Below are positions 2,844-62,255 of a DNA stretch of 64,000 nucleotides, one piece after another. The position numbers and the translations under genes are program-made. Under the pieces are notes generated by a model. The model was given only the letters and a program-made list of their open reading frames with translations, made no database searches and had not been told where the DNA came from. The stretch's first letter is position 1, and each line of letters begins with the position of its first letter. The stretch covers positions 95,356,001-95,420,000 of the forward strand of contig OX597818.1 in the NCBI GenBank assembly GCA_951406725.2, written 5' to 3'. This DNA is from Octopus vulgaris. Its lineage: Eukaryota.

Positions 2844-2989
2844 GTTTATAATTTTCACCTTTAAAGGTATTTTAATATGCTGCCACTTTGATGAAATTTT
2901 TTTTGGAAAAAATTTTATCTTATATTAGAAGTATATATTAATATATTAATATATAATATATTAATATCATTTCAGCATAAAGCAACAGA

Positions 2990-3172
2990 ATGGAAAGAAA
3001 GATTAAAAGCAGTAGTATTCCATTAGCGAATTTTGACCCACAAATTGTGGTAAAACTTCACAAAAATGTGGAAACTGAGGCTGCGAACTGGTTTATTGAC
3101 AAACTGCAAATGGATCGGAAATTTGGTGGTGGAAATTTGATTGTAAAATCTGTTATCAATGAAAAGAAGGAG
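2990..3172 (+). CDS. ANO10: Anoctamin-10 (TMEM16K)-like, first coding exon
   Basis: MERKIK...FDPQIVVKLHKNVETEAANWFIDKLQMDRKFGGGNLIVKSVINEKKE resembles the ANO10 N-terminus (FxPxVV..W..K.GG.L) as recalled. Acceptor tttcag ends at 2975, an in-frame TAA (2978-2980) precedes the ATG, and donor GTAAGT starts at 3173; 61 codons, phase 0. Confidence 0.85.
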
Positions 3173-3363: not shown

Positions 3364-3402
<39 letters not shown>

Positions 3403-3468
3403 GGGAATATTATTCCAAACTTACAGAGAAAAATAAAATTTGGAAATACTAAATCAAATTTCACAAAG

Positions 3469-3500
<32 letters not shown>

Positions 3501-3509
<9 letters not shown>

Positions 3510-3792
3510 AAACCACACCTTTTATCAATTCAATAATGAAAAATTAAATTATACAATCTAGAAAATTACATATAGAAATATTAAATATAAGATAAAACAT
3601 ATAACGATGATTAAGTAATGTGCAAAATAATAAATAAACCAAATATATACGTTTTATTTATTATTTTGCACATTGCTTAATCATGGTTATATGTTTTATC
3701 TTATATTTAATATTTCTATAATATGTAATTTTCTAGATGGTATAATTTAATTTTTCATCATTGAATTGATAAAAGGTGGGTTTTTTTCTAAT
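3501..3792. repeat. Fold-back palindrome (~138-bp arms, ~14-bp loop) flanked by (TA)n
   Basis: attagaaaaaaacc...taaataaa / tttattta...ttttctaat are near-perfect reverse complements. Confidence 0.93.
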
Positions 3793-3930
3793 TTATATAT
3801 ATATAATGGGTAATAAAACAAATGGTTTACACCTGGTAGCTTACTGGTAAAGAATGGTCACATTCACAGTGATTGTTAGGTATATGGCAAATGAAAGATG
3901 GAAGATGGAATATATGAGAATTTATTATTG

Positions 3931-4036
3931 ATCACAACAATTGTTTCGACACATCTATCATCGATTCTTCATGGGTGGGACACTCAACAACTGGTTCAGA
4001 AGTATCCAGTGGTGCAGATGTGTCTCGTCAGGTGAT
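3931..4036 (-). ncRNA. Type I hammerhead-like motif in the left arm of the same fold-back
   Basis: Reverse complement reads atcac-CTGACGA-gacacatct...agatgtgtc-GAAA-caatt-GTT-gtgat; perfect stem I, GUU site. Confidence 0.6.
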
Positions 4037-4311
4037 AAATAAATACAACTCATTAAAATAACTGTTCCGCAATGTAACTTCCCATTTTGTAGAAAGAAAA
4101 GCAGCCAGATGGAGGAAAGATCAAAAATAAAATCACAGATGGCAAAAAGAGAAACAAACATGCAATCCAGCAAGAAAAGTATTTTCGTCATCTGTGATTT
4201 TATTTTTGATCTTCTATATAAATGAAGATATTTCCTCTGTCTGGTGCTATTTTTTCTACAAAATGAGAAGTTACATTACGGAACAGTTATTGTAACGAAT
4301 TGTATTTATTT

Positions 4312-4417
4312 ATCACCTGATGAGATACATCTGCACCACTGGATGCTCTTGAGCCAATTATTGAGTGTCCCACCCATGAGGAATCGATGATAGATGTGTC
4401 GAAACAATTGTCGCGAT
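4312..4417 (+). ncRNA. Type I hammerhead-ribozyme-like motif in the right arm of a fold-back
   Basis: atcac-CTGATGA-gatacatct...agatgtgtc-GAAA-caatt-GTC-gcgat: intact core, long stem II, palindromic stem III (acaattgt) and GUC site; one mismatch in stem I. Confidence 0.65.
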
Positions 4418-4807
4418 TAATGATAAATTCTCATATATTCCATCTTCTGTCTTTCATTTGCCATATATTTCAAGAGTGTCTGTGTGGTAAGTAGCTTGCT
4501 TATCAACCACATAGTTCCGGGTTCAGTCCCACTGCATGGCACCTTGGGCAAGTGTCTTCTACTATAGCCTCAGGCCAACCAAAGCCTTGTGAATGAATTT
4601 GGTAGATGGAAACTGAAAGAAGCCCGTCATATATGTGTGTTCCTCTCCTCCAACTAATGCGAACCATCAAAATTGTTGATGGCCCATCTGGTGTATGAGG
4701 GAATTTTACACTGCTGCCCTCAACTATGTCACGTTGAGCCATTGGTTTGTTTGGTATTGGGAATAGGAGAGTGTCCAGTTTCTTTTTCAAGACGTCCATA
4801 TGTATAT

Positions 4808-24159: not shown

Positions 24160-24191
<32 letters not shown>

Positions 24192-24201
<10 letters not shown>

Positions 24202-24452
24202 TAGTTTTAGAGACAGAACCACCTTCAACTAAATCAACACTGAAAGATTTTATACCCAACCACTCCATAAAATGTTAGATATTAAATCTTATAGTAACTA
24301 TATCTATTCTGAATTCCGGAAAATACAGAATTCAGAATAGATATAGTTAGTATAAGATTTAATATTTAACATTTTATAGAGAGGTTAGGTATAAAATCTT
24401 TGAGTGTTGATTGAGTTGAAGGTGGTTCTGCCTTTAAAACTACTTTTATATA
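24192..24452. repeat. Fold-back palindrome (~125-bp arms, 11-bp loop) next to (TA)n
   Basis: tataaaagtagtttt...ctgaattc / gaattcag...aaaactacttttata. Confidence 0.92.
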
Positions 24453-24579
24453 TACGAATTAAACATTGAGAGATGTTCATTTCAGCACATCTAATTTGAA
24501 TATCTTTTTCCTGTGTACTTGGAAGTAATATTCCCTAAAATTACTGCATCAGCATGGCCGCAGCTCTGAGCTCAAACTA

Positions 24580-36228: not shown

Positions 36229-36741
36229 GTATATTATATATATAGCAGTATATTATACAATATATATATATATATAAATGCATACAAACATGTATATGTA
36301 TTTATGATTTTGTGTGTGTGTGTGTGTGTGTGCGTGCATGTGTTTGTGTATGTATATATTGTCAAAGTACATTAATTTTCCATAGGAACCGGGGTGGACA
36401 ATGCTGACTCTCCCATTTTTTTACTTTAACACAGCTTGAATAATTACAACTCTCTATCTCTCGCACCTGTACGCTTTTAATTGCTGCACATTTGTAAATG
36501 TGTGATCCTGCCAAGCAGGATTGGTCAGGATTTCAATTTGAATAACTATTTACTTTGAATCAAAGCATGAAAACATATGAAATGTTTAAATAACATTTTA
36601 ATATCGTTTCAATGAAAACCACATTGTACAATGTACATACAATAATGTCTCGAATTCATTTATTTACTTATTTCTTTATTTGATGGGAGGTGTAGCAAGA
36701 CAGTGTGTGTGTGTGTGTATACGTGTGTGCATGCACATGTA

Positions 36742-36777
<36 letters not shown>

Positions 36778-36849
36778 TGTATGTATGTATGTATGTATGT
36801 ATGTATGTATGTATGTATGTATGTATGTATGTATGTATGTATGTATGTA

Positions 36850-36893
<44 letters not shown>

Positions 36894-36895
36894 CA

Positions 36896-39800
36896 TGGTA
36901 CAAGATTTTCTGGGCAGGGAACACTGACGGGGTTGGTGGCGTGGGTATACTTATCGCTGAGAAATGGGTAGATAAAGTAATTGAGGTAATCAGAGTATGT
37001 GACAGAATACTTAAGATTAGATTAGTGCTTCATCATAGTTTAGCAACCATTATATCAGCCTATGCTCCTCAGTCGGGGCTACCCGATGGAAAGAAAGACC
37101 GATTCTATGACACTCTACTGCAGACTACCTCATTGACGAACGACAGAGACCTTATCTTTGTGGCTGGTGACTTCAATGGTCACGTTGGACGACATGCTGG
37201 GGGCTTCCATGGCGTACATGGAGGCTATGGCTATGGCTCCCGAAACGAGGAGGGAACCAGGCTGCTGGAGTTCTGCGATGCAAATAATCTTATGATTTGC
37301 AACACTAACTTCAGGAAACCTACCAGCCACCTAGTCACTTACCGATCGGGCCAACATACCAGCCAAATTGACTACATCCTTGCAAGGCAAAGGGAGAGAT
37401 GGCTGCTTATAAATGCCAAAACCTTCCCAGGTGAAGAATGTACCCCACAACATAGACTGGTAGTTAGTGACTTTAGGATCAGGACTAGGAGGACAACCAG
37501 AAGACGACCAATATAGAGAAGAAGGATCTGGAAGCTTAAAGATCCTGCAAATGGACAGAGATTTAGAGACATATTACTTGAAGCCTCTGACGAAGTAGAA
37601 GGGGATAGAGCATCACAGGGGGTAGAAGACAGCTGGACGTTTCTAAGGGACAACCTGCTGAGAGCCACTGACCAGATCTGTGGCTGGTGCAAAGTCCCCT
37701 CTCGACCTAGAATAACGTGGTGGTGGAACAATATTGTAGACAGGGCTATTAGAGAAAAGAGACAGGCTTGGAAGGTCTGGAAAAATGGGGGTAGCAGGGA
37801 ATTGTATCAGACTGCCAAAAGAGAAGCTAAGAGACAGGTTTATTTAGCCAGAGGGGAAGCAGATAAGAAAAAATTTGCCAATGTTCTGCGCCGTGAGGAC
37901 CAAAGACTGGAGGTGTTTCGCGTTGCAAGACAGTGTGTGAGAGAGAATCGTGATGTGGTAGGAGAGAAGTGTGTTCGCATGGAAGATGGTTCACTTGCGC
38001 TAAATGATGATGCAAAGGTTTGGAGATGCCACTATGAAAGTTTGCTGAATAAAGAAAATGAATGGGATAAAGAGAGTCTGCCGAATGTTGACCCAACAGA
38101 GGGACCAGCTATCCAAGTTGATAGTTCCGTGGTAGCTAAGGCAATTAGAAGCATGAAGACAGGAAAAGCCCCAGGCCCATCAGGAATCACTGCAGAGATG
38201 CTCAAAATGTCTGGTAGTGTCGGCTATAGCCTAGTCACCCATATAGTTAATCAGGTGATACACAAAGGAGTCATACCCAATGACTGGTGTAGCAGCATAA
38301 TAGTCAACTGCTACAAAGGTAAAGGTGATGCCCTAGATACAAATAACTACAGAGGTATCAACCTGTTGGATCAGGTGATGAAGGTTACGGAGAGGGTCAT
38401 AGCCCAACTAATTAGAGAGAGAGTTAGTTTGGAGATGCAGTTTGGGTTTGTGCCAGGGAAAAGTACTACTGATGCTATATTCCTGGTAAGGCAGCTGCAG
38501 GAGAAATACCTAGCCAAAGATAAGCCCCTGTACCTGGCTTTTGTTGACATGGAGAAAGCCTTCGACAGGGTCCCCCGATCCCTTATCTGGTGGGCAATGA
38601 GGAAACTAGGGATAGATGAATGGTTAGTGAGAGCTGTGCGGGCCATGTGTAGGAACGCTGCTAGTAGGGTGAGGGTTGGAAACGAGTACAGTGAAGAATT
38701 CCGGGTAGAGGTAGGGGTCCACCAAGGCTCAGTACTCAGCCCCCTCCTATTTATCATAGTCCTCCAAGCAATAACGGAGGAATTCAAGACAGGATGCCCT
38801 TGGGAGCTCCTCTATGCTGATGACCTTGCTCTAATTGCTGAGTCGCTATCAGAACTGGAGGAGAAGTTTCAGGTATGGAAACAAGGATTTGAATCGAAGG
38901 GCCTCAGAGTCATAATCAGTAGGAAGGTAGACAAATCACAAACGCCTTCAGGTAGATGGCCCTGCTCGATCTGTAGAAAAGGTGTAGGTAGAAACTCTAT
39001 AAGATGCACCAAGTGTAAGCTATGGACACATAAGAGGTGCAGCAATGTCAAAGGAAGGCTAACTAGGAAGATGGTTTGTGTATGTGGCAGATGCTCAGGA
39101 ACAATAAACACTGAAAATGCTCTGAGACCAACTTCCGTCACTTTCCAGGGAGAAAAACTAGAAATAGTTGATAGTTTCCGTTACCTAGGTGACCAAGTCA
39201 GCAGCGGGGGCGGGTGTGCTGAAAGTGTAACTGCTAGAGTAAGAATAGCTTGGGCAAAGTTCAGAGAGCTCTTACCTCTGCTGGTGACAAAAGGCCTCTC
39301 GCACAGAGTGAAAGGCAGACTGTATGATGCGTGTGTACGAACAGCCATGCTACATGGCAGTGAAACATGGGCCGTGACTGCTGAGGATATGCGTAAGCTT
39401 GCAAGAAATGAAGCCAGTATGCTCCGATGGATGTGTAATGTCAGTGTTCATAATCGACAGAGTGTAAGTACCTTGAAAGAAAAGCTGGACCTAAGAAGCA
39501 TCAGTTGTGGTGTGCAAGAGAGACGTTTGCGCTGGTATGGTCATGTGGCGAGAATGGATGAAGATAGTTGTGTGAAAAAGTGCCACACCCTAGCGGTTGA
39601 GGGAACCTGTGGAAGAGGCAGACCCAGGTGAAGCACGACCTTCGAACTTTAGGTCTCACTGAGGAAATGACTAGAGACCGAGTCCTCTGGAAGTGTGCTG
39701 TGCGCGAGAAGACCCGGCAGGACAAGTGAGTCCATAACCCGTGGCCTTCTACTTGGGATGGAGCCAGCCTACGTATGCATACCTTCCCTTCTTGGGACAC

Positions 39801-40489: not shown

Positions 40490-40648
40490 TATTAAAGTAT
40501 AAGCTTTACAGAAAATTATTTTATTACATACTTTGTGACTGAATTTGGTTGACAGAAACAGTGGAAGCCTGTTATGTGTACATTCATACATACATATATA
40601 TATGTATATATATGTATATATGTATATACATATATATATATATTATTC

Positions 40649-40817
40649 AAAACAGTTTGGTTCGGCTCCATGCAACTATAAGTTTTGTGGGCCTCTGACA
40701 GAAATCCTTCTCTTTCAGGCTTACGTTACCAATTCAGTATTCTATGCCTGAAAGAAATAGGCCACTGTCAAAGGCCCGCGTATCTTTAAGCCACAAGGAG
40801 CTGAATCAAACTGTTTT
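40649..40817. repeat. Degenerate fold-back next to (TA)n
   Basis: aaaacagtttggttcggctcc..gggcctctgacag..tttcaggc / gcctgaaa..ctgtcaaaggccc..ggagctgaatcaaactgtttt. Confidence 0.75.
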
Positions 40818-40958
40818 AATTAATGCCTGTAACATCTAAATGTGTTGAATGCCTTTTTCTCTTTTGTTCTTCCAATCACTTATAAAGATATCATCATCAT
40901 TATCATCTTCATTTAACATCTGCCTTCCATGCTGGCACACACACACACACACACACAC

Positions 40959-55554: not shown

Positions 55555-55690
55555 AAAACGATGCTTTATTTGAGTGCTGCTCCAGATAAATTATTACTTG
55601 GGGCTGAACTGTTTGACTTGAAGAAGAAATACAATGATGGTTATTACAGAGATTTCAACATTGATGACCTGGAGAACTTCCAAGGAGCAG
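55555..55690 (+). CDS. ANO10: Anoctamin-10-like, second coding exon
   Basis: Acceptor tttgtttattgcag ends at 55554. KTMLYLSAAPDKLLLGAELFDLKKKYNDGYYRDFNIDDLENFQGA matches the ANO10 LLGAE..L.K..ND..R.F....NF.G motif. Phase 0 in, phase 1 out; donor GT at 55691. Confidence 0.9.
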
Positions 55691-58600
55691 GTACCAGGAA
55701 ATGTTTAATAATCATATATTTAAAATACTATTTTCTAACTATGATGACAATTTGGTATTGGGGGTTAATGTTTAGATAAGTGTTCAACTCAAACCACGCA
55801 TTTAACCTTGCAGCCAAGATTGTTTTGTTTTTTCATTTTCTTTTTCCATTTTAGTCAGGAAGAAGTGGTACTGCTCATAGCTTTTGCAGGCTTTTCCAGG
55901 ACTGATGAAGTTGATACTATTGATGTTCACATTGACTTATTGTAGGCTGATGTCTGTAGAAAAAATGTAAACAGAAACGTAAAACCTATCTAAGCAGTAC
56001 CATGGTAAAGTTACTGTAATACAAAAGAACACAGGCTAGACTGAATTTTTAGTAGATAGCCTTTCTTGAATTTGAACCTTGAATGTTTAAGCTTGAAAGT
56101 CAAAACCACTAGCAAATAAATACTATATTTGTTAATGTTACCCAGAGATAATTGCCAATACTGATTAATATATTCACTAAATATTAACCAGAGTTAATTT
56201 TGGTTATATCACTGAGCTCTGTTTTAACACCTGCTGACATTGTTTTCCAAGCCAGTTGCTTTTAACACCAGTTTTGGATAGGTGTTGACAGACAAAAAAG
56301 AAAATTTGATTTTTACACCAAAAGGGCCCATGGAATATTCTGGAACTTTTTAGTGAGGTTATAGAAAGGCTGGAGTTCAGCTCCCCATTGGAATTTTTCG
56401 CATTGCAGTTGGGGCCAAATGTCTTTAAACCCACTTTTAATAAAATAATTTTCATCCCTCAACTTTCTCTCTAAGAAATTATTCTTGTTGTAACCAGGGA
56501 CTGTCCTGTATTTATATGAAATCATTGAATTCTCATCTTACAGCAATTTCACAATTTCTTATACACACATATCACACATAAAACAAACTGTACCTATATA
56601 TATATAAATGTTAGGTTGTTATTAATAAACATTGTTGAAGGTAATTCTTTCTTCTCAACCTGTTATTACAGATTGAAATGTAATTCAAAATGAAGGAATT
56701 ATTTCCTTCCTGCCACTAGCCTGAGTTTTCATTTTGTCCAAACAATTATTGCACACACAACCTTTAACTTTCACAAAATAAATCACAATAAGATCCTAAT
56801 TACTGTCAAGGACTTGATTTCAATGCAGTTCCTGTTGAACATGTCACGGTGTCAAAGAGACTTTGTAATGGATAGCACTACAAGAAACCGGCTCAGACAG
56901 GTACATTTCTAGCCTCTAGACCAGAGTTCTTCAACTAAAGTACTGTAACATACTTGCATCCTACGTATATCATGAGAGTGTGCAGCATGGTTCTGTGGGG
57001 AGTTGGAAAATGCCATAATATTTGAGTGTGTTTTTATACCATGCACTGATGCATGTGTTCTTCTTTGAGGCTAAGTTGAACACATGCACATAAGACGGTT
57101 TTAATACTTTTTCCTTTACGTTGTAAAACTTCTTAATAGCTAATGGTGTGCTGTTACACTTTTAGTACCTTACTCCATGTGCTGAAGATAAAAAAAATTT
57201 TTGAAAAATCAATGCTTTATACAATGTTCTAATTATGGCATTACAGCATAGGATTAAGTTGAAATTTAACAGACTATTTTTGCTTATGCTAATTTCAGAA
57301 TGAAGGACAGAGTTGATGGTTTGTTGCGTGCAAAGCAACCATACCTTTGACTCCTAAGTAGGTTATTATTCAGTGGAAATACAGGAAGAGATGTTTGGAT
57401 GGGTTGATATATTGGAGGTGTTGATTTTTTGTAAGTCATTGATGTGAAAAAAAATGTAGAAGAGGCATAAAGAAAGGTCTGGAAACAAGTTATGGTGGAA
57501 ATGAAGTATTTTCATATTTATTTTTCAACCCTGATGTTCTATCAGAAATATTGGAACAAATCTCCCATTAGATTACATACTTTACTCATCCTAAATATTC
57601 AGAGGTTTGCTGGATTTCTTTTTTTTTTTTCCACATTATTTTTTCATATAAAGCAGGTGACCAACGAAAATTCCATTTGGACAGAAATATTTTAATTAAA
57701 TGCAAATTTAAAGGAGTGCTTAGTTATGCCATAAATTACCAATGGTGTTGGCCTTTACTTCCCAAGATCTGCCAGATGTCACATCCTTGATTATTGTCTA
57801 TCATTGTGTTAGCTATTTACATGACATTGGTATATATAGGGCATTTTTTCTGTGCGTATACAAGACTAACAGCAATACAATCACCCTGCTCTATTCACTG
57901 TCTATTGTCTTCATTGTCAATTTGTGTGTAATTTTGCTTTACTTTCCCACAAATTTTTCTATTAATTTCCCTATGCAGTGTTAACTTTGTCACAGGTTAC
58001 ACAAATAAATTAGCAAAACAATGTGGTATTTAGAAGTATTTAGAAGTATTTTGAAGTACCTACCAGTAAGGAACATCTAAGATTTAGTCAATCATTTATT
58101 GTCTTAGGTTCCTTTTGGTGAAATCTTAACAGCATATATTATATTTTTTAATTTTTATAATTACATCATGAAAGAGGTATTTTAGCTATTTAAAAACATA
58201 CAAAAACATACTAATCATTTTCAAACATTTGTTTTTTAGTACATTGTACAATGAAGTGTCAAAATAAAGTTTCATCATGCTTCAGCAACCTAGTCATTAA
58301 CACACTTCCACTGCATCACAAATCACTCGTCAAACAAGTACAACTGTGAAATATTTTAATCATGTTTAGCTGATTAACTCCAATACAAAGACACAACAAT
58401 AAACACAAGAAAACACTAGAACATGGAAAAAAAACAATGGAAATACAAGACTTAAAATAAAATTATACATCAACTGACTGAAGCAAGTAAAAGAATAAAA
58501 GAGTAAGAGAATAGTATTCTGTTGATGTCATACGAATTTAATTAACTTTCAAGAGACTGTAAACTTATTCTTTTGTAAAAATATTTCGAAACATACACGT

Positions 58601-62122: not shown

Positions 62123-62124
<2 letters not shown>

Positions 62125-62255
62125 CTCATGGCTGGCTATATATATATATCATTTAAAAAATGATGATGATGATGATGATATATATATATATATATATCAT
62201 CATCATCATCATCATCATTGTTTAAACGATATATATATATAGCCAGCCATGAGCT
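62123..62255. repeat. Palindrome built largely from microsatellites
   Basis: agctcatggctggc(ta)n..(tga)n(ta)n(tca)n..(ta)n gccagccatgagct. Confidence 0.85.

Follow-up and report, generated by a model that had tools for sequence, protein, structure and literature searches.

Penelope-like elements (PLEs) of the Hydra clade are defined, in the published description, by a CxCX5C linker, by CxxC and CxH motifs and by the lack of a CCHH motif (Craig et al., 2021, PMC8557442). As characterized there, they carry a GIY-YIG endonuclease C-terminal to the reverse transcriptase (RT), insert at (TA)n targets and bear a 3′ hammerhead with a palindromic stem III. Copies truncated at the 5′ end and joined to an inverted copy, with an optional tail, form a published layout (PMC8557442; PMC3846280), and the supplement to the former source includes Penelope-13_HM, where an inverted 5′-truncated copy leaves a hammerhead on both strands. 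Inverted-pLTR insertions have been described for Pen2a/Pen2 of Adineta (PMC3846280) and Poseidon of the anole (PMC11167929), with unequal head-to-head arms, a short overlap at the junction and a tail on one arm. The minimal or dimeric hammerheads reported for metazoan PLEs are of type I, with a long stem II, a 5-bp stem I and a palindromic stem III, and in Schistosoma opposite-strand pairs lie 100-700 bp apart (Cervera and de la Pena, 2014, PMC4209133).

The locus considered here has a head-to-head layout and hammerhead motifs of this kind. It lies in a 64,000-nt stretch of the Octopus vulgaris genome (contig OX597818.1, positions 95,356,001 to 95,420,000; hereafter the window, whose own numbering is used) and was described in an initial annotation as a long fold-back carrying two oppositely oriented hammerhead motifs. 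It is very probable that the fold-back consists of two 5′-truncated 3′ ends of one family, lying head to head by a TA repeat, most likely placed there by one Penelope-type insertion and decaying without function (Table 1). The locus is thus an ordinary one, a decayed head-to-head stub of a Hydra-type Penelope in a known layout; what is unusual, a hammerhead core mostly with C at position 4 (C4) and a 59-nt loop II, belongs to the family.

Table 1. Features of the fold-back and its host gene, in window coordinates.
Feature	Position	Strand	Basis and details
First coding exon, anoctamin-10-like host gene	2976..3172	+	ATG at 2990; PDB match and contig ends
(TA)6 target microsatellite, left end	3794..3805		Sequence; common to the adjoining palindrome
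Optional family tail, left arm only	3806..3880	-	75 nt; present in other copies
Left arm, inverted 5′-truncated element 3′ end	3881..4183	-	19-nt internal deletion
Left-arm hammerhead motif	3931-4036	-	CUGACGA, GAAA, GUU; stems intact; antisense to host transcript
Head-to-head junction, 2-nt overlap	4182..4183		By eye and from family frame F-N-T-F-L; exact overlap inferred
Right arm, shorter 5′-truncated 3′ end of the same family	4182..4467	+	No tail; ends TATA
Right-arm hammerhead motif	4312-4417	+	CUGAUGA 4317-4323; stem II 4324-4332/4392-4400; GAAA 4401-4404; CAAUUG; GUC with C4412
Next host exon	55555..55691	+	Contig continuation past 3172; after AG acceptor; end from following GT

The inverted arms of about 265 bp that had been noticed in the sequence are real. 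Their ungapped core (3881-4103/4245-4467) is 90% complementary, and with gaps the arms (3881-4148/4182-4467) are 85% identical over 285 columns, with a 19-nt gap on the left. The RNA fold of the whole has an energy of -393 kcal/mol (z -44.7), which none of 100 shuffles equals. The start of the element at 3881 had been placed too far inward: the true start is at about 3806, and the 75-nt family tail at 3806-3880 had been missed. The same tail extension occurs in five further copies (L007, L012, L014, L024, L027), and the full query (q1-377) is matched in three others (L064, L065, L103). What appears to be the loop of the hairpin is extra 5′ element sequence of the left arm. Both ends of the element fall in TA runs, with no readable target-site duplication; family copies typically end in (TA)n, and (TA)n insertion can be seen both in the flanks of those copies and in the left flank of the window copy. 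Compared with the insertions described for Adineta Pen2a/Pen2 (PMC3846280) and anole Poseidon (PMC11167929), the locus differs in consisting of two stubs only, in lacking both an ORF and a readable target duplication, and in belonging to a different clade, while the tail of the octopus family, at 75 nt, is longer than the published 30-40.

Immediately to the left, at 3400-3805, lies a younger, AT-rich repeat family, likewise arranged head to head. It has 1756 genomic candidates, with copies 94-97% identical, and it shows a left-arm extension and (TA)n ends; for many of its copies in the genome, a partner lies on the opposite strand. It looks like a Penelope-type end, and no hammerhead core was seen in it. 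Further short-loop palindromes are found at 2619-2850, 24190-24454, 40642-40824 and 62123-62255, the first two of which adjoin TA repeats.

The link to Penelope-like elements that had been drawn from the motif holds. A first look across the genome gives 2548 candidates for the right arm, and the 40 that were scored are 86-91% identical to it, apart from itself. Longer copies carry decayed GIY-YIG and RT reading frames upstream of the 3′ end, and a 155-aa piece of the family frame has 150 scored matches. In one copy (L076), a frame of 416 aa holds RT motifs and the endonuclease and can be aligned to homologs of 730-760 aa; 30 related proteins measure 729-953 aa (best E 8e-52), and RVT_1 is recognized at E 0.00086 in one of the six related proteins scanned. 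In the family's own frames, Pfam finds only a weak RVT_1 (E 0.02) and no GIY-YIG match. The linker appears as CSCRxKSKC in L081 and L083, a CxCX5C pattern, the CCHH cysteine pair is missing between GIY and YIG in the family alignment, and CxxC and CxH stand beside the conserved E and N. The RWK and DKT motifs of the N-terminal RT region, likewise marks of the Hydra clade, are seen only in the aligned homologs, this part being absent from the family ORF recovered; none of the 59 long loci examined is a full-length intact copy. Because these motifs match the published Hydra definition, the family probably belongs to the Hydra clade and is, judged from its sequence, an abundant, decayed RT and GIY-YIG retrotransposon with Hydra-clade Penelope features.

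Two other placements were considered. A first reading had put the family in the Neptune clade, and neither the CX2-5CxxC linker nor the CCHH motif was found. A non-LTR retrozyme was rejected as well, since the family extends into coding sequence for an endonuclease and RT, and since its two copies here are inverted and do not form a head-to-tail tandem of non-coding units. Within the Hydra clade, Hydra-1_Obim is a separate family according to the supplement of PMC8557442, with a hammerhead sequence unlike that of the octopus family. In every Hydra motif given in that source the core is CUGA and loop II measures about 10 nt at most, whereas those of the octopus family mostly have CCGA and a structured loop II of 59 nt. 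The metazoan PLE hammerheads described in PMC4209133 likewise differ from the octopus motif, with its C4 core, very long loop II and lack of an Rfam match. The literature, as far as it was covered, holds no description of the octopus family or of a CCGA/C4 core in a Penelope element.

How common is the head-to-head layout within the family? Such pairs account for 8 of the 29 loci selected through the motif core, 9 of the 47 selected through protein and 5 of the 28 selected through DNA, where the protein-picked set comes from 59 loci examined, 12 of them with no match to the 3′ end, and the three sets overlap slightly. Both arms include the span of the motif in 4, 2 and 1 of these pairs, respectively, and exactly one arm bears the tail in 6/8, 7/9 and 4/5. 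These counts bear on the idea that one inserted copy was later duplicated locally in inverted orientation to give the palindrome, or that the palindrome is mobile as a whole, like a MITE. In favor of this idea, some derived sites are common to both arms, yet the arms end exactly at the two alternative 3′ ends of the family, one with the tail and one without, the 5′ breakpoints vary among all paired loci, most family copies are single, and there is neither a common palindromic unit nor a target duplication, so that the probability left to this origin is close to negligible. A different arrangement is seen at L098/L045, where the tails of two long family copies face each other across about 100 nt and one of these copies also carries, at its 5′ end, an inverted piece that includes the tail.

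Insertion from both sides of a break is the preferred origin, and its steps can be outlined by analogy with the anole element, whose protein is reported to cut and extend both strands, to prefer AT-rich DNA and to use two internal RT start sites that define the tail (PMC11167929). The element protein would have cut both strands at (TA)n, a step suggested by the anole in vitro work. Reverse transcription from two alternative internal start sites would then have given two cDNAs, only one of which had the tail, primed from opposite sides of the break in (TA)n. Both cDNAs would have stopped after some 300-380 nt, and their 5′ ends would have been joined through the 2-nt overlap. Alternatively, the same product could be reached by self-priming on an antisense template, as proposed in PMC3846280. 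Why does each arm carry a hammerhead? The motif sits 50-155 nt from the element end, so even short cDNAs would include it. The prediction for the host pre-mRNA is that the two arms pair and that the ribozyme is inactive, both as side effects.

A single insertion event for the two arms is likely. They have six derived sites in common, one of them rare (4390A, found in 3 of 103 others), and these sites would fit descent from one parent. The copy closest to the right arm lies elsewhere on the same contig, about 2.2 Mb from the window (L004), at a distance of 0.069 and so slightly nearer than the left arm at 0.075, a point that tempers the single-event reading, and it has five of the six common sites, including 4390A. 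The window locus and this copy possibly form a small CUGA-core lineage or result from local hopping.

Both arms have the type I core of CUGANGA, GAAA and UH, together with stem II, the palindromic stem III and a GUC or GUU site, much as the initial annotation had described them. The atcac/gtgat stem I given there for each arm is found on the left only: ATCAC/GTGAT is intact in the left arm, while the right arm has ATCAC/GCGAT, with an A-C mismatch at the second pair (4315/4414). The right-arm motif has a 9-bp stem II and a 59-nt loop II that contains an internal hairpin; if active, it is predicted to be cut after C4412. This sense copy had been credited with an intact core, and it does keep every invariant core letter; it is also predicted to misfold when taken alone (z -0.73), with pairing probabilities of 0.00 for stem I and 0.02 for stem II and a hammerhead shape 7.8 kcal/mol above the optimum. 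Predicted pairing is 0.96 and 0.99 for the same stems in the left arm, and 0.86 and 0.99 in the family majority motif; stem III is favored in no monomer fold. Among 108 arms four are fully canonical, and the left arm is one of the four; 16 of the 108 combine a C4 core with intact stems. The better-preserved motif is therefore that of the left arm, which is antisense to the host gene. The proposed covariance-model check failed to recover either motif, as Rfam gives no hammerhead match at the gathering threshold in the whole window, nor at E<=10 around the element, where only generic hairpin families appear. The 59-nt loop II may be the cause.

The CUGA of the two window motifs is a minority state in the family. 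Among the 100 matches listed (18 further ones exist), core position 4 is, by a hand count, occupied by C in 78, by T in 19 and by G in 3, and in the older subfamily C is found in 11 of 15. Because C4 predominates among the copies, also in the older subfamily, CCGA is taken as the ancestral core. Positions 4-5 read CG in 27, TG in 9, CA in 10 and otherwise in 7 of 53 protein-picked arms, a spectrum resembling that of ten other CpG sites. CUGA is thus likely to have arisen by CpG decay, either in each arm or in their parent. Since octopus transposons are reported to be weakly methylated (PMC9476566), we only infer the cause of the CpG excess. Among the matches listed, T4 and T7 occur together above chance (10/19 vs 10/78), an association that both shared decay and a small lineage could explain. 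The idea that CUGA comes mainly from a T4 subfamily was set aside, the T4 copies being scattered over a non-CpG tree, itself weak, star-like and built on a short alignment; a small T4 lineage including the window locus and L004 is possible. A canonical core in a single copy can therefore be a product of decay, and caution is needed when one is read as a sign of function.

Was the motif under constraint while the family was active? Of 20 differences between subfamilies, only one falls within 47 motif positions (p 0.04) and it keeps the pairing, the groups having been drawn by eye on a weak tree. Subfamilies differ at the variable positions N7 and H17, and of the three changes in the hairpin of loop II, two preserve pairing and one breaks it. 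Conservation is 0.925 in core and stems vs 0.899 in matched columns (p 0.03), with p 0.19 for the core alone, and no two-sided compensatory change occurs among the subfamily majorities. Together these figures are modest evidence that the motif may have been constrained while the family was active. A viroid hammerhead with U4C, cited in Perreault et al. (2011, PMC3088659), is reported to be slower in vitro and sufficient in vivo; in that source C4 is a rare natural variant, whereas in the putative octopus hammerhead it is the majority state of a high-copy retroelement family. It can be proposed tentatively, and with somewhat less than even confidence, that a Hydra-clade octopus family spread to thousands of copies by means of a working hammerhead whose core has the non-canonical C4 and whose structured loop II is 59 nt long, and that CpG decay turns dead copies into CUGA, so that some old intronic copies could out-cleave their parent. 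The drift of dead copies to CUGA would follow because C4-G5 is a CpG. The value of the family is modest: motifs that combine C4 with a long loop II would escape Rfam and CUGANGA descriptors, and the copies form a natural series for asking whether Penelope hammerheads must cleave at all.

A more elaborate meaning had been given to the fold-back in the initial annotation, that of a ribozyme packaged with its own antisense lock. In its selective form, the proposal is that the left arm has been kept to stop a sense intronic ribozyme from cutting the host pre-mRNA. The thermodynamic part of the claim stands, as the sense/antisense duplex is very stable (-178.7 kcal/mol) and, in the whole fold-back, the hammerhead shape lies 143 kcal/mol above the hairpin, which excludes it. 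The retention of every invariant core letter in the sense motif speaks for the lock as well. Folded alone, however, the motif is predicted not to take the hammerhead shape either, and its stem I carries a mismatch. Moreover, the 2-bp stem III needs a second sense copy, and none is present elsewhere in the window. Metazoan PLE hammerheads are described as cleaving weakly as dimers or as needing the element protein (PMC11167929). In the plus-strand fold the arm mismatches comprise 14 G-U, 11 A-C and 18 others, and selection for pairing has left no trace in them. The transcription of the antisense arm first is uninformative as well, because any head-to-head pair is antisense-first on either strand. 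With unbiased decay and a layout that is common in the family, a packaged device finds no support, and selection for a lock is very unlikely. The mirror-image motifs are most likely a by-product of insertion, not a purpose-built RNA lock, because the head-to-head layout is well known for Penelope-type elements. More generally, mirror-image ribozymes of which the antisense is transcribed first follow from insertion geometry, and should be treated with caution.

The host gene had been taken to be ANO10, and this identity is confirmed: anoctamin-10 is the sole PDB match of two exon-derived peptides (E 0.048 and 0.00031), while a Pfam search of the host exons recognizes no domain. Contigs of four runs presumed to be RNA cover 2972-3172, starting at 2972-2976 and stopping at 3171-3172. 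In two of the four runs they continue upstream of the exon, beyond 2976, into other sequence, and in two of the four they continue downstream of 3172, a continuation located at 55555. The upstream continuation in run X11 has an exact match 62.5 kb upstream, before a GT donor; X11 comes from a related organism (6 differences in 199 nt) and its upstream continuation is the only one mapped. That of run X4 has no match within 110 kb upstream at <=1 mismatch. A genome pattern search for the spliced junction gave no match, as junctions should. The first coding exon is thus spliced to a non-coding exon upstream. The differing upstream continuations in the two runs suggest alternative first exons.

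The intron that holds the fold-back follows the first coding exon and spans 3173-55554 (52.4 kb). It had been called the first intron; because RNA contigs show an exon upstream of 2976, it is at least the second. A long dsRNA in the pre-mRNA would be a plausible ADAR substrate, by analogy with inverted repeats, described as standard editing substrates in animals (PMC9989829), and a predicted duplex of about 270 bp in a transcribed gene raises the question of whether the hairpin matters to the host as dsRNA, for editing or for small RNAs, whatever its origin. Repeats are commonly edited, and such editing may have no function; the hairpin sits well inside a 52-kb intron, some 630 nt away from its donor; besides it, the window has five or more short-range palindromes or inverted pairs; and pairing is under no visible selection, so that a functional substrate of this sort is extremely unlikely. 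On the element itself, the contigs of the four presumed RNA runs are dominated by other family copies. The same intron also contains, at 36602-39631 on the plus strand, nearly intact LINE-like endonuclease and RT frames of 304 and 704 aa, recognized from translation only.
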